From NCBI GenBank assembly GCA_009909065.1, contig JAAANZ010000023.1, positions 210 through 64,209 on the forward strand: a stretch of 64,000 bases of DNA. Direction: 5' to 3'. How positions within the stretch are numbered: position 1 is the stretch's first letter; every line of letters starts with the position of its first letter. A program made the position numbers and the translations under genes. Shown piece after piece: positions 14,217 through 30,826 of this stretch. The notes below the pieces were generated by a model. It was not told where the DNA came from and ran no database searches. It was given only the letters and a program-made list of their open reading frames with translations. This DNA comes from Alphaproteobacteria bacterium. GTDB lineage: Bacteria > Pseudomonadota > Alphaproteobacteria > Caulobacterales > Hyphomonadaceae.

Positions 14217-15944
14217 TCAACCGCGATGCGAGAGATCGAAAGCCACCTTGCGTGCCTGACCGTTATCGCCGAGGCGTTCGACGGCCAGGTCGAGCGTGAC
14301 GCCGCCATGATCCTCGAAATACCCGATTTCGATGGGGTGCGCGCCAGCTTCCAGGGCCACCATTCCGAAACGCGTGCGCGGGCTGTGCGAGCCGTCATTC
14401 TCGACCACGCGCTGGCCGGCAATATCGACGAGCGTTCCGTCATCCGAACGTGTCGAGAGGCGGTAGAGGCCTGTTTCCGGCACGGTCAGGAAACCGGTGA
14501 AGCGGATGGCATAATGGTCCTCGCGCTCCTGCAGCGCCTCGATGTCGAGATCCTTGCTGACCCCGCGGGTCAGGGGAGTGCCCAGACCGGCGAAATCCGG
14601 CACGGCCATGAATTCGCCCTCCCAATAGGCATAGGACAGCCCGGGGCTTGTCCTTCCGGGCGAGAGGGCCGCCACGGGGTCGGCCTTTTCATACCGGCGC
14701 ATGAAATCGCCGGAACGGCGAAAGCCTTCGGGGGCAAAATAGGCGGCCCGGACCGTCCGCGTGTCGGTGAGTTCGATCGGGCTTTCATAGAGAGCGGACT
14801 CGCGTGTCGGAGCGCTGCCATCGAGCGTGTAGCGTATATCGAGGCCGGGATACTGTGAATCGAGTTCGACGGCGTGGCGGGTCTCGAACAGGGTGCGCTC
14901 GGTCATCGGAAGATCCAGGTCGAGCTCCTCGAGATTGACCCGGTAGATGGATTCGGTCTGGCCGGTTTGTGTGTTGACGATTCGATAGAGCAGGTGGGCC
15001 AGATTCTCCGCATCATCTTCCCACTGGATATCGATCAGCGCCATCGAATGGGTGGATGTGTTCACCGCCGAGACACGCCAGGGATTGAGCTCCGGTGACT
15101 CGATCTGGTTAACCCCGGCAAACTGCAATTCGATGGCGTCATAGTCGAGTGCGCCGCGGCGCCGGGCGACCTCGCCGTAATGCTGGTCGCCCGTGATGAA
15201 CAGGACCCCGTCCTTGCCGGACCGGCGGACCGTGTCGAACAGGCGTTCGGCCGCGCCTTCATAATTGTCCCAGGTTTCCGAGCCGGCCTCGCGCGGCAGC
15301 AGGACCTGCGTCCCCGAGACGATAAGGGTGAGATCGGCAGGCACGCGGATCTGCTCTTCCAGCCAGCTCCATTGCGCCTCGCCGAGAATGTCGCCGCCGG
15401 TGTCCGGCGCGTCACGGTTCCAGCGCACATCCAGCATGATCACCTGCAGGCGTTTGCCATCCGTCTCGAAAACACGGGCGGAGTAAATGCCGTCGGCGGG
15501 ATTGGCCGGCACGCCCGCATCGCCCCAGAACTGGGTAAAGGCGCGTTTGCCATCTTCCTTGAGACGGTAGGTGCGATCCTCGTCATTGTCGCCATAATCA
15601 TGGTCGTCCCAGGTCGCCATGTGGTGGCCCGTGGCCCGCAGCGCCTCGAAACCCGGCTGGGCCGCCAGGTCGCGATAGCCCTGATAGATCGCCTCGGGAT
15701 TGTCCTGGGTATCGATATAGACATTGTCACCGACCCAGAGCGACAGGTCCGGCGCGGCCTGCGCATAGGATTGCAGGGCCGGGGCGGGCTCATACTGCTT
15801 GATGCAACCGAGCAGGGCGATCCGGTCGATCTCGGCCTCGCCCGCGGGCGTGCCGGCCTGTCCCTGTGCCGGTTGCACGGTTCCGGCACAGGCCGCAAGG
15901 GCGGTCAGGGTGGCGACGAGGCTTGCGCGCATGAAGGTCTCCAT
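14217..15944 (-). CDS. phoD: PhoD-like phosphodiesterase/alkaline phosphatase D fused to a chitobiase-C-like Ig module and a PA14 domain (lipoprotein signal)
   Basis: METFMRASLVATLTALAAC (lipobox). PhoD-type metallophosphatase motifs are present (WVGDNVYID, TWDDHDYGDND, FITGDQHYGE), followed by IRYTLDGSAPT...VRAAYF and a PA14-like block (YAYWEGEF...HYAIRFTGFLTVPETGLYRLSTRSDDGTLVDI...). The track ORF 14217..16844 is over-extended into the upstream gene. Confidence 0.85.
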   Translation of the reverse strand: METFMRASLVATLTALAACAGTVQPAQGQAGTPAGEAEIDRIALLGCIKQYEPAPALQSYAQAAPDLSLWVGDNVYIDTQDNPEAIYQGYRDLAAQPGFEALRATGHHMATWDDHDYGDNDEDRTYRLKEDGKRAFTQFWGDAGVPANPADGIYSARVFETDGKRLQVIMLDVRWNRDAPDTGGDILGEAQWSWLEEQIRVPADLTLIVSGTQVLLPREAGSETWDNYEGAAERLFDTVRRSGKDGVLFITGDQHYGEVARRRGALDYDAIELQFAGVNQIESPELNPWRVSAVNTSTHSMALIDIQWEDDAENLAHLLYRIVNTQTGQTESIYRVNLEELDLDLPMTERTLFETRHAVELDSQYPGLDIRYTLDGSAPTRESALYESPIELTDTRTVRAAYFAPEGFRRSGDFMRRYEKADPVAALSPGRTSPGLSYAYWEGEFMAVPDFAGLGTPLTRGVSKDLDIEALQEREDHYAIRFTGFLTVPETGLYRLSTRSDDGTLVDIAGQRVVENDGSHSPRTRFGMVALEAGAHPIEIGYFEDHGGVTLDLAVERLGDNGQARKVAFDLSHRG

Positions 15945-15970: not shown

Positions 15971-17284
15971 TCAGCCAGCCGCGGCCGGGGCGGGCGTCTT
16001 GGCACCGGCCGGGTCGGCGAGATGGCCCCTGCGGAAATAGAGAAAGGCGGCGGTGGTGCAGGTCGCGACAACAGCGGCAGAGATGTAACAAAAGCCGACA
16101 AAGAAATTCAGCCAGTCGAGATCGGCGGCGCCGAAATTCTTGTAGAGCATCAGCCCGACACTGCCGGCATAGCCGCTCGCATCGGCCAGATACATGAAGA
16201 AGGCGGCATTGCCGGGCGTCTTCAGCGCCGCCGTCATGCGATCCACGAGGATACAGTTGTAAGGCACATAGCCCATATACAGGCCGGCCCCGACGGCGAT
16301 CATCCAGCTCACCGGGCCGATGGCGCCGGTCTGGAAACCGAATGTGGACAGCGCAACGAGCCCTGCGCCGGCGAATATGATCCAGTGATGGGTCAGGACG
16401 GCATTGCGGTTGGACTTGATGACGATGGTCGAGGCCATGAAGGCGAGCACCACCGCGGCGACGGGAATCTCGGACAGCGCAAAGATCGAGGGCGTGTCGG
16501 CATAACCGACCGCCTCCCAGATCTCGACGGCGAAATTGTCGCGAAAATCGCGCAGGGCGGTGAGCACGACATAGGCCAGGATCAGCATGGTCAGCCCGAA
16601 GGCATTGTTCCAGAAAAACGCTTTCCGCTCGGCGGCATGCATCGGCACCCGCGGTTTGCGCTCGGCCTTGTCCGCCTCGCTTGGCGCCGGCGTGAGCGAA
16701 AGAAACCAGACCGAGATCGCAAGGATCGGCATGAAGATCACACCGGTCAGCGCCGGCATCCAGACATCCGGCACGCCCTGCTCGACGATCAGCCAGCGGC
16801 CGACGGATTTGACCACGCCTGACGAGATGATGAAACTGGCACACAGCCCGGCACCGATGATCTCACTGATCCGGCGCCCCTCCATATAGGCAAAGACCAG
16901 CCCCCAGATCATGCCCAGTGGCAGGCCGTTCATGAAGATCGCCGCGATCTTCCAGTTGGCCGGCAATATCGCGAAGAGGACAAGGGCCAGCCAGGCCGTG
17001 GCGATGAAGCCGAGGATCATCAGTGCGCGCCGGTTCGGTTCGGCTTCGGAGACGATTTTCACGCCGATCAGCTTGGAAAGCGCATAGCCGAGAACCTGGC
17101 AGATCACGATGGCGATCTTGAAATCGATCGCGAACCCCCAGGCTTCGATGCCTTCATAAGTCGCCACCGTGAATGGCTTGCGGAAGGCATACATGGAGAA
17201 ATAGGTCGTGAAGGCGGCCGCCAGGGCATAAGCGCCGATCCAGAAGGTTCCCGAGCGCTGGACAGTGCGCGTGATCACATTCAT
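15971..17284 (-). CDS. MFS-like polytopic permease (resembles the DUF5690 family seen in phosphonate loci)
   Basis: 437 aa with about 12 hydrophobic helices. The N-terminal YFSMYAFRKPFTVATYEG...QVLGYALSKLIGVKIVSE resembles DUF5690 as I recall it. It sits 26 nt upstream of the PhoD-like gene on the same strand. The membrane transporter call is secure; the family name is less so. Confidence 0.8.
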   Translation of the reverse strand: MNVITRTVQRSGTFWIGAYALAAAFTTYFSMYAFRKPFTVATYEGIEAWGFAIDFKIAIVICQVLGYALSKLIGVKIVSEAEPNRRALMILGFIATAWLALVLFAILPANWKIAAIFMNGLPLGMIWGLVFAYMEGRRISEIIGAGLCASFIISSGVVKSVGRWLIVEQGVPDVWMPALTGVIFMPILAISVWFLSLTPAPSEADKAERKPRVPMHAAERKAFFWNNAFGLTMLILAYVVLTALRDFRDNFAVEIWEAVGYADTPSIFALSEIPVAAVVLAFMASTIVIKSNRNAVLTHHWIIFAGAGLVALSTFGFQTGAIGPVSWMIAVGAGLYMGYVPYNCILVDRMTAALKTPGNAAFFMYLADASGYAGSVGLMLYKNFGAADLDWLNFFVGFCYISAAVVATCTTAAFLYFRRGHLADPAGAKTPAPAAAG

Positions 17285-17655: not shown

Positions 17656-18132
17656 ATGATTCGCGCTGCCCTATTTGCCCTTTCACTGACCACGGCGTTC
17701 GTCGCTCCCGTCCACGCGTCCGGGCTGACGGCCGAACAGTCCGTCCTGAAAATCGTCGAAACTGTCGACGAATCCGGCGAGACGGTGACAAATCTCGTCC
17801 CGGCCGACAAGGTGGCGCCCGGTGACACGGTTGTCTATGCTCTGGAATATGCCAATGGCGCGAGCGACCCGGCCGACAATGTGAAGCTGACCATGCCCGT
17901 CCCCGCAGAGGTGAGCTATCTCGAGAACTCGGCCACGACGGATGGCGTTTCGGTCTCTTTCTCGGCCGATGGCGGAGAGCGGTTCGCCAGCCGCGGAGAT
18001 CTGACCGTCAGCGTTGACGGCGAGCCGCGCGAGGCCCTGTCCGGCGACATCACGCATGTCCGCTGGGTGTTTGAAGAGCCGATCGCCGCCGGCGCCACCG
18101 GAAAGGTCTCTTACAGGGCCGTCCTCGACTGA
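17656..18132 (+). CDS. small secreted single-DUF11-domain protein (locus gene A)
   Basis: Signal peptide MIRAALFALSLTTAFVAPVHA. The mature ~135 aa carries the DUF11 'conserved repeat' signature (PGDTVVYALEYANGASDPADNVKLTMPVPAEV...GATGKVSYRAVL). Alternative start is ATG 17635 (track). Confidence 0.8.
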   Translation: MIRAALFALSLTTAFVAPVHASGLTAEQSVLKIVETVDESGETVTNLVPADKVAPGDTVVYALEYANGASDPADNVKLTMPVPAEVSYLENSATTDGVSVSFSADGGERFASRGDLTVSVDGEPREALSGDITHVRWVFEEPIAAGATGKVSYRAVLD

Positions 18133-18165: not shown

Positions 18166-18198
18166 ACGGCCGGATTCGCAATCCGGCCGTAACCTTTT
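18166..18198 (+). terminator. stem-loop with short T-tract after gene A
   Basis: ACGGCCGGAT-tcgca-ATCCGGCCGT (10-bp perfect stem) followed by AACCTTTTG. It lies 34 nt after the gene A stop. Confidence 0.6.
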
Positions 18199-18345: not shown

Positions 18346-19596
18346 ATGAACTTGCTCAGAAACATCCCGAAACTGGCTCTGGCGGCCAGTGCCACCGCCC
18401 TGATGGCCGGCGCGGCCCATGCCGGCGGCACCGATGCCGGCACATCGGTGGAAAACACCTTCACCCTCGATTATGACGTCGATGGCACCCCGCAGGGCAC
18501 GATCACCAACGACTCGACTTACTCGGCAGGTGCCGGCGATCCGTCGCCGATTATCGACCCGGACGGTCCGACCGATTTCACCGTCGACCGCCTGATCGAC
18601 CTGACCGTCACGGCCAACAATTCGGGCCTCCTGGTCCCGCCGAATGCCGACGATCGCATCCTGGAATTCACGCTGACCAATACCGGCAACGACAATCAGG
18701 CCTATTCCTTCAGCATTGATGATGTCAGCGGCGATGATTTCGATGCCACTGGCCTCGAGATCACGTATTCCCGCGCGGCGGTCGACCTCAATGATGACGG
18801 CGACACATCTGACACCTGCGAAGCGGCGGTGACCGATGCGCCGCTGACCGTGACGACACTGGGCGCCGCGGCCGGATCGGCCGACGTGACCTGCGACATT
18901 CCGAAGGACGGCACGGCCACGATCAATATTTCCGGTGACATTCCGGATTCGCTTACAGAGGCGGACATCGACGACCTGATCCTTGTCGCCGAAACCCGTG
19001 ATCCGACAGTCTGGGCCACGGAAGGCAATCCGGCGACCCCGGCGGCGGTGACGGCTGAGGATGGGGACGCAACCAACACAATTGACGGCGTGGCCGAAAA
19101 TGTCTTCGCCGATGATTCCGGTTCGTCTTCCGAAGTGGCCAATGACGGCCTGCACTCGGCACCGTCGAGCTATGTCATCTCCTCACCGGACTTGACGGCT
19201 GAGAAGGATGTCTGGGTCCTGGCCACGGCCTCGGACGAGACCAACTGCGCCGCCGAGACGGTTCCCGGCTCCGAGCCGACGGACCAGTATTCTTCGCCGA
19301 CGGCTTGTGTGCTCTACACGATCACGACAACCAATACCGGCGAGGTGGCCGGCTCCGACGCCACCGGCATCGAGATCGTGGACGTGCTTCCCGAAGACGT
19401 CGCTTTCGTGAAAGCCGAGACGAGTGGTTTCGATAGCGCGCCCGCGCTGACCTTCAAGAAGGCCGACGGCACGACCGATTGCGATGGCGCGGCCGGCGAG
19501 ACCTGCACGGTCACGGTGAGTGGAGCCAATCTCTCGGCGACAGCCGGCGCCACGGACAGCCTCGCATATCTGCGCATCTGGGCGCTGGTCCGCTGA
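18346..19596 (+). CDS. secreted acidic multi-domain protein ending in a DUF11 domain (locus gene B)
   Basis: Signal peptide MNLLRNIPKLALAASATALMAGAAHA. The protein is Asp/Thr/Gly-rich, and its C-terminal module has the DUF11 pattern (CVLYTITTTNTGEVAGSDATGIEIVDVLPEDV...). SD GGAGAGAGG lies upstream. Confidence 0.8.
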   Translation: MNLLRNIPKLALAASATALMAGAAHAGGTDAGTSVENTFTLDYDVDGTPQGTITNDSTYSAGAGDPSPIIDPDGPTDFTVDRLIDLTVTANNSGLLVPPNADDRILEFTLTNTGNDNQAYSFSIDDVSGDDFDATGLEITYSRAAVDLNDDGDTSDTCEAAVTDAPLTVTTLGAAAGSADVTCDIPKDGTATINISGDIPDSLTEADIDDLILVAETRDPTVWATEGNPATPAAVTAEDGDATNTIDGVAENVFADDSGSSSEVANDGLHSAPSSYVISSPDLTAEKDVWVLATASDETNCAAETVPGSEPTDQYSSPTACVLYTITTTNTGEVAGSDATGIEIVDVLPEDVAFVKAETSGFDSAPALTFKKADGTTDCDGAAGETCTVTVSGANLSATAGATDSLAYLRIWALVR

Positions 19597-19635: not shown

Positions 19636-19673
19636 GAGCCCCCGCGAAGCCCGTTCGCGGGGGCTCTTCAATT
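19636..19673 (+). terminator. strong GC stem-loop after gene B (terminator/attenuator-like, weak T-tract)
   Basis: GAGCCCCCGCGAA-gcccg-TTCGCGGGGGCTC (13-bp perfect stem) followed by TTCAATT. Confidence 0.5.
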
Positions 19674-19815: not shown

Positions 19816-22800
19816 ATGGTTGGTGTAATGGCTTTTTTCAAGAAGTCGACAAGAGCGGTATGCGCGTTTTTCGGCGCACTGATGGCCGGGGCTCTCTCAG
19901 TCGGGGCGACGACGCCGCTGGGCGAACAGGTGACCAATATCGCCCAGGTCACCTATGAGCATTCAAGCGGTCCGCTGAGCATGGACACGAATGCGGCCGA
20001 TTTCACCGTCGTTGCGCGCCCCACGCCGTCGACGGTCGAATTCTTTCGCTATGCCCCGAACGCCAGCGATCGTTTCACCACGCGCATCCATGGCAGCGAC
20101 TACAGCCCCACGGGCGAAGGCCCCGACGCCGAGTTCGTGGCGATCGGCCCGCCGGTCACGATGGGCGGAACCGAGCTGGATTTTTCCGGCGAGGTGCCAC
20201 TGATCCCGGCCGAAACCTATTTCTCCGGCGAGCTGATGGTCGTGCGTGTGATCGACAAGGGCCAGAATGGCGACCCGGAGCGCATCGAGACCCTGACCAC
20301 CATGATCACGACCGATGGCAGCGACCAGATCTGCCTGAGGCTTTATGAGAGCGGCACGGATACGGGGCATTTCTATGGCTATATGCCGAGCACGGCCGAG
20401 CCCACCGCCGCCAATGATGCCAGGATCACCGCGCCGAAGGACAGCCAGCTGACAGCGACATATGTCGATGTCTTCGACTCGACGGAAGTGTCCATCGATA
20501 CGGCCCTCGTCGATCCCTTTGGCCGGCTTTTCGATTCGCTGACGGGTGAATTCATCGATGGGGCGCAAGTCACGATCGTCGAGGATGAAACCGGCGCGCC
20601 CGCCGATGTCTATGGTGTCGATGGCGTGTCCGAATATCCCTCGACACTTGTCACGGGCGGAACGGTCACCGATGCCGGCGGATCGGTATATGATCTGGAT
20701 CCCGGCGAGTTCCTCTTCCCGCTGATGGCGCCCGGCGAATACCGCCTGATCATCGAGCCGCCGGAAGGCTATGTCTATCCGTCCGGCTTCCCGGCCGACC
20801 AGTTCGGATCGCTGGAAAACGCGCCCTTCGAAATCATCGACGGCTCTTACGGGCGCAGCTTCACGGTCAGCGCAACAGGCCCGCTGAATTTCGACGTGCC
20901 CCTCGACACGACGCGCGGCCTGACGGTCACCAAGCGGTCCGGCCAGACACAGGCCGCGATCGGCGATTTCGTGTCCTACTCGGTGACGGCCGAGAACCGT
21001 TCCGACACCGCCCTTCCGATGATTGTTCGCGATGAGCTGCCGCGCGGGCTGCGTTATGAAGCTGGCTCGGCCGAGATTGAAGGCGCCGATACAGAGACGG
21101 CCGAGATTTCGGAAAATGGCCGCACACTGACATTCGATGCCGGGCTGATCGCGCCGGGCACCAAGCGCACGCTGAATTATGTCGCGGCCGTCGGAGCCGG
21201 CACGCCGCCGGGAACGGCGGTCAACAGCGCAGCCGCTGTCAATCCGCTTGGCCGCTCGATCTCGAACACGGCCGAAGCGGCCATCGAGATCCGCGAGGAT
21301 TTCCTGCGCTCGGAACTGACCCTCGTCGGCCGCGTCACCGAGGATGCCTGCCAGGCCGACCAGGACTGGGCGCGCGATATCGCGGACGGGTCCGGAGTGG
21401 CGGGCGTCCGGCTCTATCTGGAGACCGGTGAATATGTCGTCACGGACGAGGACGGGCTGTTCCATTTCGAGGGTGTCGAGGCGCGCACGCATGTGCTCCA
21501 GCTCGACCGCGAGACCCTGCCAGACGGGCTTGAGCCGGTCGTGTGCGAGGAAAATACCCGCTATGCCGGTTCAGCCTATTCGAAATTCATCGATGCCGAA
21601 GGCGGCACGGTCTGGCGCGCCAATTTCTACCTCACCCGAACCGAGGAGCAGAGCGCCGAGAAGGCGGAGGAATACTTCGACGATGCGGTCGAATACAGGA
21701 AATTCGATCAGGACTGGCTGGACGCTCAGTCGGCTGATATCGAATGGGTCTATCCCGACACGACGCGAACCCCGTCGCACCAGAGTGTCAATCTGGGGAT
21801 CAAGACACCTTTCCGCGCCTCGGTGTCCCTGAAGGTGAACGGCCGGCCGGTGCCCGCCACGAATGTGCAGTCGCGCCTGACCTCGGCTGACCGCAGCGCC
21901 GACCTTCATCGCTGGCGCGGCGTGGATATCAACCGTGGCCGGAACCGGTTCGTGGCGACGATACGCCAGGCCGACGGAACCGAAACAACGCTCGAGCGCA
22001 CCATCTGGTTTGTCGATGAGGCCCAGCGCGCGCGCCTCGTTGATGACCAGTCCGTGCTGGTCGCCGACGGGCGAACCCGTCCGGTCGTCGCGGTCCGCCT
22101 GGAGGATGCCGAGGGCCATGCCGTCCATGCCGGGCGTGTCGTCGATGTCGATGTGGCCGATCCCTATCGCCTGGTGGCCGATGCGCGCCGTGAAGAGCGC
22201 AACCCGGTCGCCACCAACACGATCGAGGTGTCCGGTGTGCATGTCGATCCCGATGGTATCGCCCGGATCGAGCTCGAACCGACTCTGGTGACGGGGCGTG
22301 TGCGGGTGCGTGTGCCCCTGAAGGACGGGCGCCATGAGGATATCACGGCTTATCTTCGCCCGGAAAAGCGCGACTGGATCGTCGTTGGCCTGGCCGAGGG
22401 AGAAGCGGGGCTTCAGGAAATTGACGGCCCGGGATCCTTCAGTGCCGAGGAGACCCTGACCGATGGCCGGCTGGCCTTCTTCGCCAAGGGCATGATCCGC
22501 GGCGACTGGCTGCTGACCCTGGCGGTGGATACGGCGAAACGCCGGGGGCGCGAGGATGATGCGCTGTTCGAGCAGATCAATCCGAATGCCTATTACACGC
22601 TGTATGGCGACCGCACCTGGCAGAACCATGACGCCGAAAGCCGCTATCCGGTCTATGTGAAGCTTGAAAAGGACACCGCGCAGATCCTCTTCGGCGATTT
22701 CAACACCGATATGAGCGATACCGAGCTGGGTCGCTACAACCGCCGCCTGTCGGGCCTTCGCGGTGTGTTCGAAGGCGAGAATGTCCGGGCGACCGGCTTT

Positions 22801-24885
22801 GCCGCCGAAACCAATCAGGGCTTTGTCAAGGACGAGTTCGCCGCCGACGGCACGTCCGGCCCCTATCGTCTCTCGACAACGCCGATCGTGCGCAACTCGG
22901 AGGTTATCACGGTGGAGACCCGTGAAAGGCTGCGACCGGACAAGGTGGTGAGCGTGCGCACGCTGACCCGGTATGTCGACTACGAGATCGACTACGAAAC
23001 AGGCGAGCTCCTGTTCCGCGCGCCGATAAATGCCACGGATACGCAGTTCAATGAGAATGTCATTGTCGCCGACTATGAGACGTTCAGCGATACCGAACGC
23101 AACACGACCTATGGCGGACGCGTGGCCGTGCGCACCGATGACAAGCGGCTTGAAGTCGGCCTCAGCCATGTCCACGAGGAAGGCCGCGCCAACCAGCCGG
23201 GTTCGCAATCGGAGGTGACGACCGTCGATGCGACCGCCCGGGTCAGCGACAATACGGAGCTGCGCGCGGAAGCGGCCCGCTCGGAACGAAGGCCCGGCCC
23301 GGATGGCGAGGCCAGCCAGTCCGCCGATGCCTATCTGCTCGAGGCGATCCATCAGGGTGAGGCGGTCACCGTCACCGGTTATGTCCGCGAGGAGCAGGCC
23401 GGCTTCGGTGTCGGCCAGACCGGATCCAACACCAACGGCATCCGCCGGTATGGGTTGCAGGGCAGCGCACTTGTCGCGGAGATCAACAATATGGAGACCG
23501 GCGAACGCGCCACGCGCACGCTGACGGCGCAGGCCTATCGCGAGGAGGCCCTTGGCCGCGATGAGGTGCGCACGGTCGGCGAACTCGGCGTGCAGCATAC
23601 CGGCCAGCTGACGACCCTTGGCGCGGGTCTGCGCGCGGTTGACGAGGCGCTCGATACCGGGCCACGCGAATCACTTCAGGCCACGGCCAATGCCTCACGC
23701 GCCTTCCCCGAAATCGGCCTGACCGTGACGGCCGCGCATGAACAGCCGCTGGGCGATGATAATGCGAATGAAGCCAGCCTCTTCCCGAGGCGCACCCTCC
23801 TGGGCGCCGACAAGCTGCTGACCCAGCGTGCGACGCTGAACCTGCGCCACGAGATCATCGACGGGGCAAATGCTTCGGGCCGGAACACGACAGCTGGCAT
23901 CTCCTATGTCCCCTGGACGGGTGGGCGTGTGACCACCTCGCTCAACGATATTACCCAGGACTCCGCCCGCCGCCTGTCAGCCACGGTTGGTGTCGACCAG
24001 ACCTTCCAGATCGATGAGCGCTGGAGCGCCAGTCTCGGCATGGCGGATCGCTCGCAGATCGATGGCGGGGAAGCTCCGCGCGATCCGCTGGCCGATGATG
24101 CGGTCTCCCCGCTGGCGGAGGGCGAGCGCAGCCGCCTGACGCTGGATGAAAGCTTTACATCCGCTTATGCAGGTCTGGGTTATCGCGACCTGGCCACAAC
24201 CGGCTCGCTGCGTGGGGAATATCGCGAAACACCCCAGTCCCAGCGCTGGGCGGTGATCCTCGGCGGTGCGCGCGAGGCTTCGGAAACGCTGTCCTTTGCG
24301 GGAACGGGCCGTTACCAGAGCGAAACCTCGGAGTTTGCCGGCCAGAGACGGGCCATCGACATGCGCCTCGGCACCGCCTGGCGTCCGCGCGGGGAAGGTC
24401 CGATCGTGTTCAATCGCCTGGACTTCAAACAGGAAGAGGTCGTCGGCGATTTCTCGACATGGAAGCTGGTCAACAATCTCGGCGCGAACACGATGCTCTC
24501 GGACGCGACGCAGATGTCCATCTTCAACGGCATCAAATATACCGACACCAGCCTGGCCGGCGCCGATGTCGAGGGCTGGGCCTGGCTGCTCGGCGGCGAG
24601 CTGCGCCACGACATCACGCCGCGGATCGATCTGGGCCTGCATGGCTCCGTGATGCACACCACCGCGACCGGCACGACGGAATTGTCCGCGGGCCCCAGCA
24701 TCGGTTTCTCGCCGAAGGACAATGTCTGGGCGTCGGTGGGCTACAATTTCATCGGTTTCCGCGACGAGGACTTCGAGGCGGCGGAATACACCCGCAACGG
24801 TCTCTACGTGAAGCTCCGGTTCAAGTTCGATGAAGAGAGCCTGGATGGACTGCTTGAGCGAATCTCGCCGCGCGGGCGTCACTGA
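19816..24885 (+). CDS. giant secreted protein: DUF11 + Cna-B/SdrD-B-like + Big_1-like modules with a large C-terminal beta-barrel-like region (locus gene C)
   Basis: The signal peptide region is ..MAFFKKSTRAVCAFFGALMAGALSVGA. Cna-B-like blocks are (GEYRLIIEPPEGYVYPSGF; VAGVRLYLETGEYVVTDEDGLFHFEGVEARTHVLQL). The DUF11 block is (GDFVSYSVTAENRSDTALPMIVRDELPRGL). The Big_1-like block is (SVLVADGRTRPVVAVRLEDAEGHAV). The last ~600-700 aa show alternating hydrophobic strands ending GLYVKLRFKF plus a 20-aa tail. Possible starts are GTG 19798, ATG 19816 and ATG 19828. Confidence 0.8.
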   Translation: MVGVMAFFKKSTRAVCAFFGALMAGALSVGATTPLGEQVTNIAQVTYEHSSGPLSMDTNAADFTVVARPTPSTVEFFRYAPNASDRFTTRIHGSDYSPTGEGPDAEFVAIGPPVTMGGTELDFSGEVPLIPAETYFSGELMVVRVIDKGQNGDPERIETLTTMITTDGSDQICLRLYESGTDTGHFYGYMPSTAEPTAANDARITAPKDSQLTATYVDVFDSTEVSIDTALVDPFGRLFDSLTGEFIDGAQVTIVEDETGAPADVYGVDGVSEYPSTLVTGGTVTDAGGSVYDLDPGEFLFPLMAPGEYRLIIEPPEGYVYPSGFPADQFGSLENAPFEIIDGSYGRSFTVSATGPLNFDVPLDTTRGLTVTKRSGQTQAAIGDFVSYSVTAENRSDTALPMIVRDELPRGLRYEAGSAEIEGADTETAEISENGRTLTFDAGLIAPGTKRTLNYVAAVGAGTPPGTAVNSAAAVNPLGRSISNTAEAAIEIREDFLRSELTLVGRVTEDACQADQDWARDIADGSGVAGVRLYLETGEYVVTDEDGLFHFEGVEARTHVLQLDRETLPDGLEPVVCEENTRYAGSAYSKFIDAEGGTVWRANFYLTRTEEQSAEKAEEYFDDAVEYRKFDQDWLDAQSADIEWVYPDTTRTPSHQSVNLGIKTPFRASVSLKVNGRPVPATNVQSRLTSADRSADLHRWRGVDINRGRNRFVATIRQADGTETTLERTIWFVDEAQRARLVDDQSVLVADGRTRPVVAVRLEDAEGHAVHAGRVVDVDVADPYRLVADARREERNPVATNTIEVSGVHVDPDGIARIELEPTLVTGRVRVRVPLKDGRHEDITAYLRPEKRDWIVVGLAEGEAGLQEIDGPGSFSAEETLTDGRLAFFAKGMIRGDWLLTLAVDTAKRRGREDDALFEQINPNAYYTLYGDRTWQNHDAESRYPVYVKLEKDTAQILFGDFNTDMSDTELGRYNRRLSGLRGVFEGENVRATGFAAETNQGFVKDEFAADGTSGPYRLSTTPIVRNSEVITVETRERLRPDKVVSVRTLTRYVDYEIDYETGELLFRAPINATDTQFNENVIVADYETFSDTERNTTYGGRVAVRTDDKRLEVGLSHVHEEGRANQPGSQSEVTTVDATARVSDNTELRAEAARSERRPGPDGEASQSADAYLLEAIHQGEAVTVTGYVREEQAGFGVGQTGSNTNGIRRYGLQGSALVAEINNMETGERATRTLTAQAYREEALGRDEVRTVGELGVQHTGQLTTLGAGLRAVDEALDTGPRESLQATANASRAFPEIGLTVTAAHEQPLGDDNANEASLFPRRTLLGADKLLTQRATLNLRHEIIDGANASGRNTTAGISYVPWTGGRVTTSLNDITQDSARRLSATVGVDQTFQIDERWSASLGMADRSQIDGGEAPRDPLADDAVSPLAEGERSRLTLDESFTSAYAGLGYRDLATTGSLRGEYRETPQSQRWAVILGGAREASETLSFAGTGRYQSETSEFAGQRRAIDMRLGTAWRPRGEGPIVFNRLDFKQEEVVGDFSTWKLVNNLGANTMLSDATQMSIFNGIKYTDTSLAGADVEGWAWLLGGELRHDITPRIDLGLHGSVMHTTATGTTELSAGPSIGFSPKDNVWASVGYNFIGFRDEDFEAAEYTRNGLYVKLRFKFDEESLDGLLERISPRGRH

Positions 24886-24974: not shown

Positions 24975-27900
24975 ATGAATCAGCGGAACACCAACAAGAT
25001 CCAGACGGCCTGGCGGCTGCTTGTGCTGTCTCTGGCAGCGATGGGCTTCGCCGGCGCGGCCATGGTGGCCACGGCGCAGACATGCGGGACCGGATCGTCA
25101 GCGACGGGTTCGGGCTTTGCGTCGTCCGGCTCTGGCAATTTCACCGAGGAGGTCTTCTGGCTCGACTGGAACTGCCCCGGCCACTCAACTTTCGCGCCCG
25201 GATCGACCGTCACACGCAGCTGGGATGTGGGCGACGGCACGATTGTTTCGGCCACGATCACGGGTGCGACATTCTCCATTCAACCCTATGATACCGGTTC
25301 CTATTTCGAGGACACGCTGCCAAGCCTCTATGGCGGACTGAACCCCCTCGGGCTGCAAGGCGCGGTCGATGGACAGGATCCGCAATTCGACATCAGCTTC
25401 AGCGCCACCCATAATGGCGACCCGATCGATGTCGATCTTGTCGTCGCGGACGCCGAGACGACGTCGCCCGGCGAAAGCATTGTCGTGAACACGAGCGGCG
25501 GTGCCTTTACCTTGTTGGAGCAATCGGGCGGCATCTCCGTGGCCGGTGCCGGCACCCAGACAGCAACGTTCTCCCATGGCGGCAGCGCCGGAACCGCGCT
25601 TCTGGAGTCCAGCGGCAGCCCGACCTTGTCGACCACGCTGAACCAGGGCGGCCGGCAGGCCGTTGCCTTCGGCGTGCGCTTCAGGAGAGACTTCTCCGAT
25701 GCACCGACAGCCGGCTATGGCGGCGCAAACCACCGCCAGAAGGGAAACTGGCGTCTCGGCGCCACGCTCACCACCGAGACGGCGGATTACAATGATCCGA
25801 ATGCGGCGGGGGACGCCGATGACGGCGTGACTTTCCCGACGCTCACTCAGGGGCAGAGCGCGACCCTCCCGGTGAGCGTGACCCAGCCGAGTGGCAATCA
25901 GGGTTATCTCCAGGCCTGGATCGACTGGAACGGCGACGGCGACTTTGCCGATGCCGGCGAGCAGGTTGCGAGCGACCTGCAAAGCGCGAGCGCAGGAACG
26001 AGCACGATCAGCGTGCCGGTCACTGTGCCTGCCACGGCAACCACCAGCCCCACCTTCGTCCGGTTCCGCTGGTCGTCGACGCAGGGCCTCGATAGCACCA
26101 CCGCCGCGCCCGATGGCGAGGTGGAGGATTATCAGGTGACGGTGCAGGCGTCGCCAACACCCAACTTCACCACAGACGACTCCCTCGGCAATGCCTGTGT
26201 GGCAAGCGGTGGCGTTCTAGGCACGACGAATTTCTTCACCGACCTCGATGGGGGCACGTTTGGAACGGGCTCCGGTGCGGCTGACGAAATACCGACAACC
26301 AACCCCTATGCCGCACAGATTTCCGGCGGCACCTATCGCAACACCCTCACAGGGTTCCAGCATGGTGATTACACCATCATCTCGAACAACCAGACGCCCC
26401 GCAATTCCTACCAGTATGGCAACGGGATCTTTGATCCTGTGAACGGCTTCACGGGCCGCTTCTTTATCTCTGATCCGAATATGAGCGCGCCGGCCTTCAC
26501 AAGCACGCTCAATGGTCTCGTTCCAGGTGAGAGCTATGAGCTCTCTTTCTGGGCCGCCGATTCGGAGACCGGAACCGGCGCAAAGCAGCGGATTGGGATA
26601 TTCGTTGATGGCGTGGAAGTATATAATACAGGATTCATTGCCAACCCGCCTTCGGGAATGGTCTGGCGTAAGTATTCATTCGTCTATGTGCACCCGACCG
26701 CTGCGTCAAGCGCAAACATTCAGATACGGGCGCTGGAGACGGGTTCGGCTGGTCGCGATATATTTTTCGACGAAATCCGGCTGTTTGAATGTAACTCACC
26801 TGCCGATTTTGGCGATGCACCGTCCACTGGCACCAGCTATGGCGAGCCACAGCACAGGATCGTGACAGGTCTTCAGCTCGGTGCTGCCGTGACCGATGAA
26901 ACGGTCGGTTATGACGATGCGAACGCCGCAGGGGACGCTGATGATGGCGTGACTTTCCCGACGCTCACTCAGGGGCAGAGCGCGACCATTCCAGTGAGCG
27001 TGACGCAAGCGAGCGGCAATCAGGGTTATCTGCAGGCCTGGATCGACTGGAACGGCGACGGCGACTTTGCCGATGCCGGCGAGCAGGTCGCAACCGACCT
27101 GCAGAGCGCGACCGCAGGAACGAGCACGATCAGTGTGCCGGTCACTGTGCCCGCCACGGCAACCACCAGCCCCACCTTCGCCCGATTCCGCTGGTCCACC
27201 ACGGCCGGCCTCGACGCCACGGCCGCTGCGCCCGATGGCGAGGTGGAGGATTATCAGGTGACGGTGGCCCCGCCCCCTCCCCCACCATCGAGCGGCGTGA
27301 TCAATTATCCCAACTCAGGCAATGGGCTCTATCGCGGCAGCATCGGCCTGCTCGACTGGGCGGGCAGCGGTCTTGATGATGGTATTCGGGATGGCGATTC
27401 GGTCAGTTTCGCCCTGCCGGAATGCCGTGCCGGCACACTGACGGCGACCTTCAGCAATGTCACCAATCCGGCCAATGCGACGACTTATGTGCCGTCCGAT
27501 ATGAATACTTGGTCCGGGGCGCCCTTCCACAACGCTTATAACGGGCCAGGCAATGGCGAGGCACTCCACGGCGCCTTTGGTGCCAGCGCGTCCTTTCGAA
27601 TCGACTGGACCATGACGGTCAATGGTGTCGCGAGGAGCCCCGACATCTTTTTCTTCGATGCAGAGGCCAGTGATTCGGGACCAGAGGCTGTGAGCGCCAC
27701 CACAAATGGCGGTGTATGGGCGCTGGTCGAGAATATCGGAGGCGCCGGTTACACTGCCACCGGGATCGGAACTCAGTCCGTCACGATTGAGCAGTCTCAA
27801 TCACCGTCCAATACTCCTCTTTTGCTTTCCATGGCCACGAGCCGCACGGATATCGACATAAATGCAGATGGTGGGCTGCAGGCGGTCGGCTTCGGCGTTC

Positions 27901-29651
27901 TGCTGCCTTGCGACAGCGGCGATGCAGGTGGGATGCCGGATGCCGCTCACGCTTTCGAGCAGCGGCCGGCTTCCGGTTCCGGGCTCGAATTCACACCCGG
28001 CCAGCTGTATCTCGGCAGCGCGCCGCCGGATGCCGAGACTGGCAGCCAGGCCAATACGGGTGCCACGGGCGACGACGCCGATGCGCTCGGCGATGACGAG
28101 GACGGCGTGACGCTGCCGACACTGACGCAAGGGACGAGCTCGACCCTTCCGGTGAACGTGACCCAGGCGAGCGCGAACCAGGGCTATCTGCAGGCCTGGA
28201 TCGACTGGAATGGTGATGGCGATTTTGCCGATACCGGCGAACAGGTCGCTTCTGATGTCACGGATGGGGGCCTGGACGATCTCGACGGAAGTGCCAATGG
28301 CGTGATCGAGCTCGACCTTGCCACACCGGCTGGCGCGACTATCGGCCAGACGGTCTCGCGTTTCCGCTGGTCATCAGCGAGCGGACTTGGTCCTGATGGC
28401 GCGGCCGCTGACGGCGAAGTCGAGGACTATCCCGTCACCATTCAGGCGAACCCGCTGGCGGGGGCGACACCCTTTACCTGTGACAGTCGGCTGTGGCAGC
28501 TGGCGCGCAAAGACACCCAGCTCATCTCGATCTCGCTTTCCGGCACAACGGCAACCTTTACCGATACCGGGAGCCCGGCCGGTGGTGGGCGCAATGCCGG
28601 TTGGGGGTATAATGAGACCGACCAGCTGGCCTATGGCTTGTCCAATACCCGTATGTGGGCCGTGGACGGGGCCGGAACCTTCTATGATCTCGGCACTGTC
28701 GGCGGCCTGGGCAGCTATTCCGGGTCCAATGCGGGCGATGTCCTGCCTGATGGCACGATGTTGTTCAAGGCCGGTGGAGGCGGTAGCGTATTAGGTCGGA
28801 TAGACCTGACCCGCACACCTTACAGCCTCGAAAGCACGGTCACACTGACCGGCCCGGCCAGCGGCGCGAACTATATCGATTTTGCCTTTAATCCGGCGGA
28901 CGGAAATGTCTATTCCATCGATTCCTCAGCCGACCGGCTCTTCTATTTCAATCCGGATACTGGCGCGACAAGCTATTTTGGTCCCTCGACGCATTCCGGC
29001 AGTTTCGGAGCCCAGTGGTTCGACGAGGATGGCAACTTCTTCGCCTATGACAACAATACGAACGAAGTCTACCAGTTCGATGTCGGCACAAATGGTTCGG
29101 GAAGCGGAGCGGCGACCTATCTGGCGACCAGCAGTGCAGATGAGGGCGGTAGGAACGACGGATTCAGCTGCCGCGGGCCGTCGCCGCTCGGTTCGGCTGA
29201 GCTGGCTGCCTCGAAGACGATTGAGCTGTTCGATGGTGGCGGTACGGGCGATGTCTACGCACTGCCCGGTGAGGATGTGATCTATACGATCAATGTCAGC
29301 AATACCGGCAGCGGCCCGACCGATCTCGACAGCGTCGTCCTGATCGACCGGATGCCGCCTGAGGTCGAATTCTTCACCGGCGACATCGATACAGGCGGAC
29401 CGGACACGTATCCGGGAAGCGACCCTGTCGGCTTTCTGGATAATGGCTCGGGCCTGACCTTTAACTATGCCAGCGATGTGGGTTTTTCGGACCAGGCCAC
29501 GCAGCCTGCAGGCTTTTCAGCCTGCACCTATACGCCGACCGGGACCTATGACCCGGATGTGACCTATATCTGTTTCAATCCGAAGGGACAGATGCCCGCC
29601 GGCGACCCGGACCCGGAATTCTCGCTCGCCCTACGTGCGCGCATTCGTTGA
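24975..29651 (+). CDS. giant secreted multi-module adhesin-like protein with three GEVED modules and a C-terminal DUF11 domain (locus gene D)
   Basis: Signal peptide MNQRNTNKIQTAWRLLVLSLAAMGFAGAAMVATA. There are three copies of ..GYLQAWIDWNGDGDFAD.GEQVA...RFRWS....DGEVEDY.VT. Two paralogous ~230-aa modules precede GEVED copies 1 and 3. Also present are a jelly-roll/CBM-like block (ELSFWAADSE...IFFDEIRLFEC), a Gly/Asp/Tyr-rich propeller-like block (28.4-29.1 kb) and a terminal DUF11 (GEDVIYTINVSNTGSGPTDLDSVVLIDRMPPEV). The track start 24891 is probably too early. Confidence 0.8.
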   Translation: MNQRNTNKIQTAWRLLVLSLAAMGFAGAAMVATAQTCGTGSSATGSGFASSGSGNFTEEVFWLDWNCPGHSTFAPGSTVTRSWDVGDGTIVSATITGATFSIQPYDTGSYFEDTLPSLYGGLNPLGLQGAVDGQDPQFDISFSATHNGDPIDVDLVVADAETTSPGESIVVNTSGGAFTLLEQSGGISVAGAGTQTATFSHGGSAGTALLESSGSPTLSTTLNQGGRQAVAFGVRFRRDFSDAPTAGYGGANHRQKGNWRLGATLTTETADYNDPNAAGDADDGVTFPTLTQGQSATLPVSVTQPSGNQGYLQAWIDWNGDGDFADAGEQVASDLQSASAGTSTISVPVTVPATATTSPTFVRFRWSSTQGLDSTTAAPDGEVEDYQVTVQASPTPNFTTDDSLGNACVASGGVLGTTNFFTDLDGGTFGTGSGAADEIPTTNPYAAQISGGTYRNTLTGFQHGDYTIISNNQTPRNSYQYGNGIFDPVNGFTGRFFISDPNMSAPAFTSTLNGLVPGESYELSFWAADSETGTGAKQRIGIFVDGVEVYNTGFIANPPSGMVWRKYSFVYVHPTAASSANIQIRALETGSAGRDIFFDEIRLFECNSPADFGDAPSTGTSYGEPQHRIVTGLQLGAAVTDETVGYDDANAAGDADDGVTFPTLTQGQSATIPVSVTQASGNQGYLQAWIDWNGDGDFADAGEQVATDLQSATAGTSTISVPVTVPATATTSPTFARFRWSTTAGLDATAAAPDGEVEDYQVTVAPPPPPPSSGVINYPNSGNGLYRGSIGLLDWAGSGLDDGIRDGDSVSFALPECRAGTLTATFSNVTNPANATTYVPSDMNTWSGAPFHNAYNGPGNGEALHGAFGASASFRIDWTMTVNGVARSPDIFFFDAEASDSGPEAVSATTNGGVWALVENIGGAGYTATGIGTQSVTIEQSQSPSNTPLLLSMATSRTDIDINADGGLQAVGFGVLLPCDSGDAGGMPDAAHAFEQRPASGSGLEFTPGQLYLGSAPPDAETGSQANTGATGDDADALGDDEDGVTLPTLTQGTSSTLPVNVTQASANQGYLQAWIDWNGDGDFADTGEQVASDVTDGGLDDLDGSANGVIELDLATPAGATIGQTVSRFRWSSASGLGPDGAAADGEVEDYPVTIQANPLAGATPFTCDSRLWQLARKDTQLISISLSGTTATFTDTGSPAGGGRNAGWGYNETDQLAYGLSNTRMWAVDGAGTFYDLGTVGGLGSYSGSNAGDVLPDGTMLFKAGGGGSVLGRIDLTRTPYSLESTVTLTGPASGANYIDFAFNPADGNVYSIDSSADRLFYFNPDTGATSYFGPSTHSGSFGAQWFDEDGNFFAYDNNTNEVYQFDVGTNGSGSGAATYLATSSADEGGRNDGFSCRGPSPLGSAELAASKTIELFDGGGTGDVYALPGEDVIYTINVSNTGSGPTDLDSVVLIDRMPPEVEFFTGDIDTGGPDTYPGSDPVGFLDNGSGLTFNYASDVGFSDQATQPAGFSACTYTPTGTYDPDVTYICFNPKGQMPAGDPDPEFSLALRARIR
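25803..26144 (+). repeat. GEVED-module DNA repeat, copy 1
   Basis: Aligns base-for-base with 26925..27266 (offset 1122 nt). Perfect runs of 42 nt (ggcgtgactttcccgacgctcactcaggggcagagcgcgacc) and 56 nt (caggcctggatcgactggaacggcgacggcgactttgccgatgccggcgagcaggt) are shared. Confidence 0.9.
26925..27266 (+). repeat. GEVED-module DNA repeat, copy 2
   Basis: See copy 1. The near-identical antisense shadow ORFs 25904..26101 and 27026..27220 in the track independently show the duplication. Confidence 0.9.
28092..28446 (+). repeat. GEVED-module DNA repeat, copy 3 (diverged)
   Basis: It encodes the same protein motif (GYLQAWIDWNGDGDFADTGEQVA...RFRWSS...DGEVEDYPVT), but many synonymous and non-synonymous differences separate it from copies 1 and 2. 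Confidence 0.8.
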
Positions 29652-29884: not shown

Positions 29885-30826
29885 TTAGGACAGGTTTGGC
29901 GCAGGGGGCGCAAGCGGATGTGCGGTTTCCAGCAATTCCTGCAATTCGTCGGTCAGGACATGCGTGTAGATCTGCGTCGTTGAAATGTCGGCATGGCCCA
30001 GAAGCGTCTGGACGCTGCGCATATCGGCCCCGCCCTGTAAAAGATGAGTCGCATAGGCATGGCGCAGCGCATGCGGATGGACGCGGTCGGGCGCGATCCC
30101 GGCCGCGCCGGCAAGCGCGTCCAGCATCTGACCGAGCCGCCGGCGCGAGAGGTGGCCGCTGGCCGCGCGGGAGGGAAACAGGAACCGCTCCGCCCGCGCG
30201 CGTGCGGTAGCCGCCTTCGGCAGGCTTGCCTCGCGCACCCCAAGCCAGGTCACCAGTGAATCAAGCGCCGGCGGGCCGAGCGGGCAGACCCTTTCGCGCC
30301 CGCCCTTTCCGCGTACCGTGATTTCCGCGCTCTCCCAGCGCCCGTTCCGCCGTCTCGGCAAGGCGCCAAGCGGCAAGCCGACGAGTTCACTCGCGCGCAG
30401 ACCGGTGGCGTATAACAGTTCGACAAGGCAGGTCAGGCGCGGATCGTCCCGGCAGGCTTCGAGGAGACGCGTCATTTCCTGGCGTGACAGGACGTCCGGC
30501 ACTTCACGTCTCGCGGCCGGGGATTCGAGCCTGGCGGTCGGGTCGTCGGTGCGCTCGCCCTCCTGGAATTCGAAGCGAAAGAAGCGCCGCAATGCCGACA
30601 TTTTCCGGGATACGGTCGACGCGGCGAGGCCGCGGGCCGCATAATCGCGCTGCAAACCTGAAAGCTCTTCAGCGCTCGCCCGGCTGAGTGCGCCGCCCAG
30701 CGCCTCGGAAGCCTCGCGAAGGTCGCGGGCATAGGCTTCCAGCGTATTGCGCGCCGCGCCGCGCTCGGCGCTCATCATTTCGAGAAACGCCTCTATCCGG
30801 ATCCTGTCAGTCATGACAGGTTCCAT
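29885..30826 (-). CDS. xerD: site-specific tyrosine recombinase XerD
   Basis: N-terminal IEAFLEMMSAERGAARNTLEAYARDLRE (the XerD core-binding-domain pattern) and a C-terminal catalytic region, HALRHAYATHLL..GADMRSVQTLLGHADISTTQIYTHV. Conserved neighbourhood with aroK-aroB. Confidence 0.9.
   Translation of the reverse strand: MEPVMTDRIRIEAFLEMMSAERGAARNTLEAYARDLREASEALGGALSRASAEELSGLQRDYAARGLAASTVSRKMSALRRFFRFEFQEGERTDDPTARLESPAARREVPDVLSRQEMTRLLEACRDDPRLTCLVELLYATGLRASELVGLPLGALPRRRNGRWESAEITVRGKGGRERVCPLGPPALDSLVTWLGVREASLPKAATARARAERFLFPSRAASGHLSRRRLGQMLDALAGAAGIAPDRVHPHALRHAYATHLLQGGADMRSVQTLLGHADISTTQIYTHVLTDELQELLETAHPLAPPAPNLS

Follow-up and report, generated by a model that had tools for sequence, protein, structure and literature searches.

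Gene C of a Hyphomonadaceae genome encodes an immunoglobulin-like stalk fused to a giant outer-membrane-barrel-type region and may form the base of a CLIPPER fibre

We analysed a 64,000-nucleotide stretch of DNA (the window) from an alphaproteobacterium of the Hyphomonadaceae (GenBank assembly GCA_009909065.1, contig JAAANZ010000023.1, positions 210 to 64,209), in which four genes, termed A, B, C and D, follow one another on the + strand. Gene C is an intact + strand open reading frame of 1689 residues (19816-24885) in a frame that is open from 19798. The candidate start codon, ATG at 19816, is preceded by AGGAA 5 nucleotides upstream, and the gene caller placed the start of a 94%-identical relative 15 codons downstream of this ATG. 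Gene C encodes a secreted protein with approximately seven immunoglobulin (Ig)-like domains followed by a very large β-meander of the outer-membrane-barrel type, which contains a conserved insert. The original prediction of an Ig-fold stalk fused to an unusually large C-terminal barrel region is supported by AlphaFold2 and Foldseek, and the peptides quoted in it all occur in the translation, e.g., RATLNLRHEI and the terminal NGLYVKLRFKF followed by DEESLDGLLERISPRGRH. The sandwich region, given there as approximately 1000 residues, measures approximately 820. The features of gene C are as follows.

19816..19908, + strand: signal peptide, residues 1-31 (ending in ALSVGA, before TT), from the translation and an AlphaFold2 helix at residues 9-25
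19909..20013, + strand: N-terminal extension, residues 32-66, the proposed donor, with an orphan DUF11-like strand (LGEQVTN41IAQVTY) and a second strand (TNAADFTVV)
20014..22365, + strand: array of Ig-like domains, residues 67-850, from Pfam, the family profile, AlphaFold2, Foldseek and conservation
22378..24831, + strand: giant β-barrel region, residues 855-1672, from AlphaFold2, Foldseek, dyad hydrophobicity and direct coupling analysis (DCA)
22843..23052, + strand: small inserted β domain, residues 1010-1079 (DGTSGPYRL...YEIDYETGELLFRAPI), from DSSP, conservation and DCA
24832..24885, + strand: charged C-terminal tail DEESLDGLLERISPRGRH and stop codon, from the translation, the model and conservation

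We modelled residues 800-1689 with AlphaFold2 using a 60-sequence alignment (predicted local distance difference test, pLDDT, 84.9; predicted template modelling score, pTM, 0.79). Residues 855-1672 formed an unbroken antiparallel meander of approximately 820 residues with 44 DSSP strands, mostly 10-17 residues long, and short loops on both sides. Foldseek searches of the PDB with this region returned outer-membrane barrels only (SlpA, MtrB, FimD, LptD and SprA), the largest first, and the best match was the 30-stranded SlpA/SDBC of Deinococcus (E 4e-11, template modelling score, TM, 0.23). The TM-scores were ≤0.24 overall (FimD, 0.18-0.29; LptD, 0.16-0.18; SprA, TMq 0.15-0.17), which indicates that the barrel region has no close structural relative. 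The long meander and the exclusive matches to membrane barrels differ from the soluble solenoid or Ig repeats that the original prediction had named as evidence against a barrel. Most strands show an alternating hydrophobic face, as in membrane barrels (dyad pattern, 285 family sequences), and weak OMP_b-brl/DUF2490 Pfam matches were found at the C-termini of homologues. The last strand of gene C, NGLYVKLRFKF, resembles a β-signal, and distant homologues stop at this strand with an aromatic or hydrophobic final residue, which is the canonical form of the signal. The charged tail predicted after it is present in gene C, with 17 rather than 20 residues; it is conserved in the family (KFDQxTAxGLLxxISP), is modelled by AlphaFold2 as a short helix, and is presumably periplasmic. 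Searches of Pfam and NCBIfam at permissive thresholds gave noise only for the barrel and nothing past residue ~600 of gene C, and searches of the PDB with the single sequence and with the family profile matched accessory Ig domains and no barrel.

Mean-field DCA was performed on 285 family sequences (effective number, Neff, 246) and then on 385 (Neff 291). Adjacent hairpins were supported, with a mean score of 0.215 against a background of 0.086, and three pairs of DSSP strands behaved as single kinked strands. Subtracting the four strands of the insert and these three merges from the 44 strands leaves approximately 37, and we therefore estimate approximately 36 strands (range 32-40) for the region, a candidate closed barrel. 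The β region had been predicted to comprise 600-700 residues and to be close in size to the usher or LptD barrels; it starts at residue ~855, spans approximately 820 residues, and its estimated 36 strands compare with 24-26 in those proteins. The couplings further paired positions 202-210 with 281-291 and 191-200 with 297-307 (fragment numbering) as one long hairpin. The turn of this hairpin, after approximately 6-8 strands, carries the 70-residue inserted β domain (residues 1010-1079). Conservation within the gene C family peaks in fragment region 140-250, which is also the hub of long-range couplings to strands along the whole sequence, as would be expected of a plug filling the lumen of a single barrel. 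The insert, with a lumen position suggested by DCA, thus looks like a plug candidate, where the original prediction had recognised none.

The N-terminal Ig-like stalk contains a DUF11 domain, a family that has been renamed CLIPPER (PMC12617251). The Pfam match of DUF11 (PF01345) at residues 369-474 (E 1e-8, 35.8 bits against a cutoff of 24.6) lies close to the predicted position of residues ~380-480, and the complete domain extends over residues 369-493 (20920-21294). Its isopeptide triad, K373/D406/N470, is kept in all 73 homologues, and the gene C family profile matched the solved CLIPPER domain 9IFR with an E value of 6.5e-9. CnaB-like domains are present in the array (residues 67-850). A Cna-B-like segment that had been proposed at residues ~530-590 was matched by CarboxypepD_reg/CnaB at residues 523-563, below the Pfam cutoff. 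In this CarboxypepD_reg-like domain (21349-21546), C512 and C577 are invariant in the 73 homologues, which suggests a conserved disulfide formed in an oxidising compartment. The Big_1-like segment expected at residues ~730-830 was placed at residues ~740-850, where the family profile matches Ig-like C-terminal domains of GH2 structures; the pre-barrel segments of homologues P0254, P0270 and P0096 gave Big_1/Invasin_D3 Pfam matches. An AlphaFold2 model of residues 1-859 (73-sequence alignment) is a chain of all-β domains (pLDDT 85.3, pTM 0.51), and its top Foldseek matches were the Bacillus pilin BcpA, the MG domains of alpha-2-macroglobulin, UafA and the B domains of SdrD. In the N-terminal extension (residues 32-66) the pLDDT was 69-82, lower than in the domain after it, and L35, G36, V39, N41 and A43 are each ≥90% conserved. 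Stalk and barrel are about equally conserved among related loci (66% vs 74% and 47% vs 46%), and the stalk is in this respect unlike a diversifying passenger.

At E ≤1e-3, the C-terminal 890 residues of gene C matched the representatives of 3157 clusters built at 50% identity, and at E ≤1e-30 those of 1175 clusters. Most of these representatives have 1600-3000 residues, with the barrel at the extreme C-terminus. A genome search with a 13-sequence alignment found relatives of gene C encoded in at least 576 species-representative genomes. Among the matches listed, the closest relatives belong to marine Hyphomonadaceae, Parvularculaceae, Hellea and Robiginitomaculum, and the family extends to Sphingomonadales, to Gammaproteobacteria such as Vibrio, and to other phyla. 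The members bear only the database names hypothetical, DUF11 domain-containing, TIGR01451 repeat, OmpA family and cadherin domain-containing, and the cluster names give no functional annotation. In six homologues (P0137, P0126, P0143, P0071, P0045 and P0097), an OmpA peptidoglycan-binding domain lies between the DUF11/CnaB domains and the barrel; in P0180 it follows the barrel, and in Vibrio it is encoded by the next gene. That the OmpA domain precedes the barrel in some homologues and follows it in another indicates that the two ends of the barrel both lie in the periplasm. CLIPPER stalk, OmpA domain and barrel also behave like one functional unit that is variously fused, in the manner of Rosetta-stone proteins. 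The positions of the OmpA domains, together with a stalk conserved like the barrel, leave the passenger role proposed for the N-terminal ~820 residues not established. P0184 has a cadherin-bearing N-terminal region of ~2000 residues that looks too long for the periplasm.

Two homologues carry further modules after the giant barrel. P0216 (2187 residues) has TPR repeats and a second small barrel (OMP_b-brl/BBP2_2) in an arrangement resembling that of Slam and the type XI secretion system (T11SS), and P0180 (2127 residues) has FlgD_ig in addition to OmpA. These modules could be real fusions or gene-calling artefacts.

The original prediction considered gene C in isolation; its operon partners A, B and D hold key mechanistic information. 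The features of these partners, including those upstream of gene C, are as follows.

17656..18132, + strand: gene A, 158 residues, a secreted single DUF11-type domain, from Pfam DUF11 and TIGR01451 matches
18166..18198, + strand: terminator-like hairpin and T-run after gene A (acggccggatt-cgc-aatccggccgt, then aaccttttg), read from the sequence
18346..19596, + strand: gene B, 416 residues, secreted, with approximately three Ig-like domains, proposed donor and acceptor, from synteny, motif and hhalign
18424-18531, + strand: orphan strand of gene B (AGTSVEN37TFTLDY), from the donor motif
19177-19593, + strand: C-terminal DUF11 domain of gene B with invariant K287 and D346, stopping after a β7-like strand, from conservation
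19636..19666, + strand: 13-bp G+C-rich hairpin between B and C (-48.9 kcal/mol, z -3.3, 0 of 200 shuffles folding as well)
24975..29651, + strand: gene D, 1558 residues, a fibrillar adhesin with CshA_NR2 (two), GEVED (three) and DUF6923, from Pfam
29190-29648, + strand: acceptor-type DUF11 domain of gene D with invariant Lys and Asp, ending in EFSLALRARIR before the stop codon, from Pfam and conservation

We compared 80 related loci. A homologue of B lies directly upstream of C in 64 of the 80 and a homologue of A lies upstream in 50; many of the loci lacking A or B sit on truncated contigs. A D-type gene follows C at 24 loci, and its products range from 383 to 1558 residues and always share the same C-terminal domain of ~150 residues. 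In Sphingomonadales and Gammaproteobacteria, the order is [adhesin]-X(~330 residues)-A(~160 residues)-B(~350-400 residues)-C. Besides A, B and sometimes D, no neighbour was conserved among the related loci. The variable part of D is illustrated by the relative L088, where A, B and C have identities of 96%, 91% and 94% to their window counterparts and D shares only the last 166 residues (87%) and the GEVED modules.

The C-terminal domains of B and D share homology with gene A, and with each other, up to the last residue (hhalign A~D 96%, A~B 88%, D~B 98%). In the complete DUF11 domain of gene C, β1 carries K373 and is followed by the D406-x-L-P motif, β6 (RTLTFDAG) with a PG loop, β7 (KRTLNYVAAV), β8 (GTAVN470SAAAV) and β9 (GRSISNTAEAAIEI). 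Genes A, B and D end just after the β6/loop/β7 motif, with ITHVRWVFEEPIAAGATGKVSYRAVLD, TCTVTVSGANLSATAGATDSLAYLRIWALVR and VTYICFNPKGQMPAGDPDPEFSLALRARIR, respectively, each before the stop codon. The last residue of B aligned to position 99 of 121 of the complete DUF11 domain (global hhalign), and a Novosphingobium homologue of B matched the RrgB K-to-N isopeptide model up to position 105 of 123, at which point the protein ends. We infer that β8, which carries the isopeptide Asn, and β9 are missing from the DUF11 domain at the C-terminus of A, B and D.

An orphan DUF11-type strand directly follows the signal peptide in B (AGTSVEN37TFTLDY) and in C (LGEQVTN41IAQVTY, followed by a second strand). 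The corresponding motif, G..[VIL].N.[AFVTS], was found in the first 80 residues of 56 of 65 B and 69 of 73 C homologues, and in the first 100 residues of 187 of 249 full-length family members, including those of 3000 residues. Its frequency elsewhere was low (A, 1/51; D, 4/23; background windows, 4%), and gene A and gene D of the window have no donor motif. Distant operons show this distribution too: X, B and C carry the N-terminal motif, and the C-terminal one is present in X, A, B and D. In regards to the isopeptide residues, the acceptor Lys and Asp are invariant in B (K287 and D346, 65/65 each) and in D (24/24 each), and neither protein has an Asn-bearing strand in cis after them. The donor Asn is conserved in 63 of 65 B (N37) and 70 of 73 C homologues (N41), i.e., approximately 96%. 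Because the acceptors of B and D always keep the Lys and Asp but have no Asn of their own, and the donors conserve one at this level, the joint is probably locked by an isopeptide bond. Gene A ends after a β7-like strand (GKVSYRAVLD) and has Met at the position of the catalytic Asp, as do 44 of its 51 homologues, and the Lys is kept in 32 of 51. The pattern cannot arise from each protein completing its own domain, since an acceptor is absent from C and a donor from A and D. We infer donor-strand complementation in trans between the acceptors of A, B and D and the donors of B and C.

These patterns suggest a donor-strand-complemented and probably isopeptide-locked CLIPPER fibre, for which gene C would be base subunit, anchor and export pore at once; we give this reading about an even chance. 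The subunits would reach the periplasm via Sec. There, the truncated DUF11 domain of the tip subunit would take up the N-terminal strands of B, B may add onto B, and the N-terminal strands of C would fill the last acceptor and thereby terminate and hold the fibre. The order would be a tip (D, or A where D is absent), then one or many B, then the N-terminus of C. D and A would accordingly be acceptor-only subunits (tips or caps), B and X both donors and acceptors (shaft or adaptor), and C a donor-only base. Each joint would probably be locked by a Lys-Asn isopeptide bond that forms spontaneously between subunits, with the acceptor Asp as catalyst ("exchange and lock"). The plugged giant barrel would anchor the fibre and would most likely serve as a gated channel to the surface for the fibre, and possibly for the stalk of C itself, with the conserved insert acting as the gate. 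In other lineages the OmpA domain would tie the assembly to peptidoglycan. A could be a tip, a cap or a chaperone. Hairpins after major-pilin genes set subunit stoichiometry, and the strong hairpins after A and B could do likewise; the one at 19636..19666 could be an attenuator giving a high B:C ratio.

Several observations weigh against the fibre. Complementation in trans has been read from sequence patterns only. Among the chimeras, the match of the DUF11 hidden Markov model (HMM) extended over the junction only for the B acceptor with the C donor and did not do so in reversed or shuffled controls, but the score was not raised, and the test is a weak one. The hhalign comparison with a complete DUF11 domain placed the donor extensions on a β9-like segment at E values of only 0.015 and 0.28. 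The last strand of D and A is β7 by motif reading, but a longer domain in D would be compatible with the local Pfam alignment, and global hhalign was of low confidence at the ends of the D and A domains. A lacks the catalytic Asp and often the Lys, and members of the Vibrio type lack the donor motif. In regards to the barrel, DCA couples the first and last strands only weakly (z 4-5.5) and gives no clean ladder for closure, approximately 36 strands are unexplained for a fibre one Ig domain wide, and neither an energy source nor a chaperone is evident.

Some of the same data can be read without polymerisation. The type IX secretion system (T9SS) recognises an Ig-like C-terminal domain of its cargo, and gene C could likewise be an export pore, similar to those of two-partner secretion (TPS) or the T9SS, for which the DUF11 domain at the C-terminus of A, B and D is the secretion tag and which releases or displays each protein singly; the N-terminal motifs would then be the first strands of the proteins' own domains. 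The candidate cargo do share a conserved Ig-like domain at the extreme C-terminus, the heads of D vary and its C-terminal domain does not, and the barrel is of SprA size. We consider this explanation unlikely, if worth keeping in mind, since it accounts neither for the N-terminal motif common to C and B nor for the invariant acceptor Lys and Asp with no Asn in cis, and there are no conserved motor or energiser genes nearby. The architecture of gene C itself, with an N-terminal stalk resembling pilins and adhesins and a C-terminal barrel, would also fit the original prediction of a self-contained, giant autotransporter-like adhesin that displays its stalk via its own barrel, with A, B and D as independent proteins, and N-terminal regions such as the 2000-residue cadherin region of P0184, too long for the periplasm, point the same way. 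The stalk, however, is conserved like the barrel and unlike the variable D, homologues have OmpA domains inside the N-terminal region, the barrel is not 12-stranded and has no helical linker, and the tight A-B-C synteny and the complementary motifs would have no explanation; we therefore regard the autotransporter-like adhesin as improbable.

The best Foldseek matches, SlpA/SDBC (E 4e-11), raise the question of whether gene C is instead a tether or porin of the SlpA kind, in which a huge barrel and a periplasm-spanning stalk space and staple the outer membrane to peptidoglycan and the DUF11 proteins are accessory parts. The high conservation of the stalk and the OmpA peptidoglycan-binding domains fused or adjacent to the barrel in many homologues agree with such a tether. 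We nevertheless find it rather improbable: neither an OmpA nor an SLH domain is found in gene C or the rest of its Hyphomonadaceae clade, the TM-score to SlpA is only 0.23, and the link with variable CshA_NR2/GEVED adhesins points to surface display. It is also conceivable that the AlphaFold2 model is misleading and that the C-terminal 820 residues form a soluble or secreted β-sheet structure. Many strands are fairly polar, closure is putative, and gene C itself matches no curated family of outer-membrane proteins. The high model confidence, the Foldseek matches to barrels only, the β-signal-like last strand, the OMP_b-brl/DUF2490 matches in homologues and the OmpA fusions on both sides of the barrel make such a structure very improbable.

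We compared the proposed fibre with known systems. Chaperone-usher pili (FimD/PapC, FimA/FimH) are likewise encoded by one operon, which provides a large outer-membrane barrel, a tip adhesin without a donor strand, and small Ig-like shaft subunits that carry the donor at the N-terminus. The usher is a 24-strand barrel with the plug between strands 6 and 7. The proposed system would resemble it in the small β-sandwich inserted early in the barrel, in periplasmic β-sandwich domains flanking the barrel, and in a hairpin after the gene presumed to encode the major subunit. In contrast to the usher, gene C has an estimated 36 or so strands rather than 24, and its proposed subunits are multi-domain CLIPPER proteins that lack their C-terminal strands. 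It also carries a donor strand, so that usher and terminator/anchor would be fused, and an isopeptide lock is likely. A PapD-like chaperone gene was not found in the operon, in which only A, B, C and sometimes D are conserved. Identity with the fimbrial usher (PF00577) was rejected, with no Pfam match and an hhalign probability of 0.4% for the family profile against E. coli FimD. Gene C is likewise no classical autotransporter, inverse autotransporter or LptD; neither these nor the usher gave a Pfam or NCBIfam match.

Exchange-and-lock has been documented for Clostridium perfringens BsaA, which is TasA-like (bioRxiv 10.1101/2024.11.04.621531), and for the thread filaments of Sulfolobus (PMC9715654). 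In these fibres, an N-terminal donor strand enters the neighbouring subunit, and an isopeptide bond between the donor Asn and the acceptor Lys forms via an acidic residue of the acceptor (bioRxiv 10.1101/2024.11.04.621531; PMC9715654). The folds and families of these proteins differ from those of A-D, the organisms have no outer membrane and the fibres no barrel partner, and the lock proposed here is deduced from conservation. The CLIPPER fibrillar adhesins of Gram-negative bacteria, such as B9T28_05395 of Acinetobacter silvestris (PDB 9IFR), combine an OmpA-like anchor with a CshA_NR2 and GEVED head and a CLIPPER stalk that bears the Lys-Asn-Asp triad (PMC12617251, PMC10952558). The head of gene D is of this kind, and the DUF11 domain of gene C matches 9IFR. 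The published bonds are, however, intramolecular and lie within a single polypeptide, whereas in the window several genes, with truncated terminal domains, encode the adhesin, which is coupled to a giant barrel.

In regards to large barrels, SprA, with 36 strands, has been called the largest known single-chain barrel (bioRxiv 10.64898/2026.03.07.710327). SprA and SlpA are single-chain barrels of a size comparable to that of gene C; SprA exports cargo with Ig-like C-terminal domains, and the SlpA stalk binds the cell wall. Gene C differs from both in structure (TM 0.15-0.24) and shows no sequence similarity to them, and no other T9SS components accompany it. Identity with SprA and the T9SS was rejected on the basis of no Pfam or NCBIfam match, a TMq of 0.15-0.17 and no conserved neighbours beyond A, B and D, and a connector of the SlpA type on the basis of an all-β stalk with neither SLH domain nor coiled coil and a TM-score of 0.23. 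Type V secretion shares with gene C a stalk and a barrel in one chain and, in invasin and intimin, a Big_1-like domain beside the barrel; the barrels are 12-stranded there, and gene C has no helical linker and a domain order that is the reverse of that of intimin. The classical autotransporter (PF03797) gave no Pfam match even at an E value of 1, and the approximately 40 long strands without a linker helix do not fit it. The inverse autotransporter (IAT_beta) has only the Big_1/Invasin_D3-like domain in common with gene C, the barrel of which is C-terminal and far larger. LptD (PF04453) and Omp85 (BamA, TpsB) were rejected for want of Pfam and NCBIfam matches, and LptD also by its Foldseek TM-scores of 0.16-0.18. 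Two literature matches were not relevant: the "DUF11" matches of a T11SS paper were to DUF1194, and those of a haloarchaeal tafi paper to DUF1102.

The literature searched contains no description of the gene C family or of the system, although papers beyond that literature are possible. None of the work found on the intramolecular CLIPPER bond, CshA-like adhesins with OmpA anchors, surveys of large barrels or exchange-and-lock connects DUF11/CLIPPER proteins of Gram-negative bacteria with a giant barrel or with donor-strand exchange. Within the libraries and literature searched, the gene C family is undescribed. The family may have been overlooked because the AlphaFold database omits uncurated predictions of more than 1280 residues (bioRxiv 10.64898/2026.03.07.710327) and no Pfam or NCBIfam model exists for the barrel. 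Two studies of CshA-like/CLIPPER adhesins describe OmpA-like anchors and name no outer-membrane component (PMC10952558, PMC12617251), and the gene C family is a testable candidate for this missing component. A wider proposal, which we find tempting but on balance doubtful, is that these genes represent an unrecognised Gram-negative pilus or adhesin system, widespread in marine Alpha- and Gammaproteobacteria. In it, a split-DUF11 CLIPPER polymer with sortase-independent Lys-Asn locks would be covalently joined to the N-terminus of a plugged single-chain barrel of approximately 36 strands or more, acting as usher, terminator and anchor. If the split-domain assembly is true, it would be a new pilus class with the first covalent sortase-free pilus chemistry in diderm bacteria and with an usher-like platform that is itself the last subunit. 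A barrel of approximately 36 strands would equal or exceed SprA and would raise the question of how BAM folds it. Natural orthogonal pairs of a donor peptide and a truncated CLIPPER domain, similar to Tag/Catcher pairs, would also serve protein ligation.

At the Vibrio-type locus (L002/L003), a distant relative of gene C with 1177 residues lies between a CLIPPER protein of more than 3687 residues and an OmpA protein of 298 residues, with neither A or B genes nor the donor motif. This arrangement may be a different coupling of adhesin, barrel and peptidoglycan anchor.

In regards to gene D, the head carries CshA_NR2 in the window (24975-29651) and Choice_anch_L in L088 (15039-19985), a change that looks like cassette-type swapping of the tip adhesin. 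Near-identical DNA repeats were found within gene D of the window (25755-28249): they are 300 nucleotides long with 88% identity at a spacing of 1122 nucleotides, and a third copy comprises 179 nucleotides with 78% identity. The repeats span the GEVED modules, which suggests that a module of ~374 residues was recently duplicated within the gene.

Upstream of the cluster, the opposite strand encodes a PhoD-like phosphatase (Fn3_assoc/CHB_HEX_C, PA14) and a DUF5690 membrane protein (14217-15932 and 15971-17284, both - strand), and the same pair precedes the A-B-C-D cluster in L088. Directly after gene D, beside aroK/aroB, lies a gene for a XerD-like tyrosine recombinase (29885-30826, - strand). 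The same arrangement is found in L088, and the gene therefore looks like a housekeeping xerD rather than the integrase of a mobile element.

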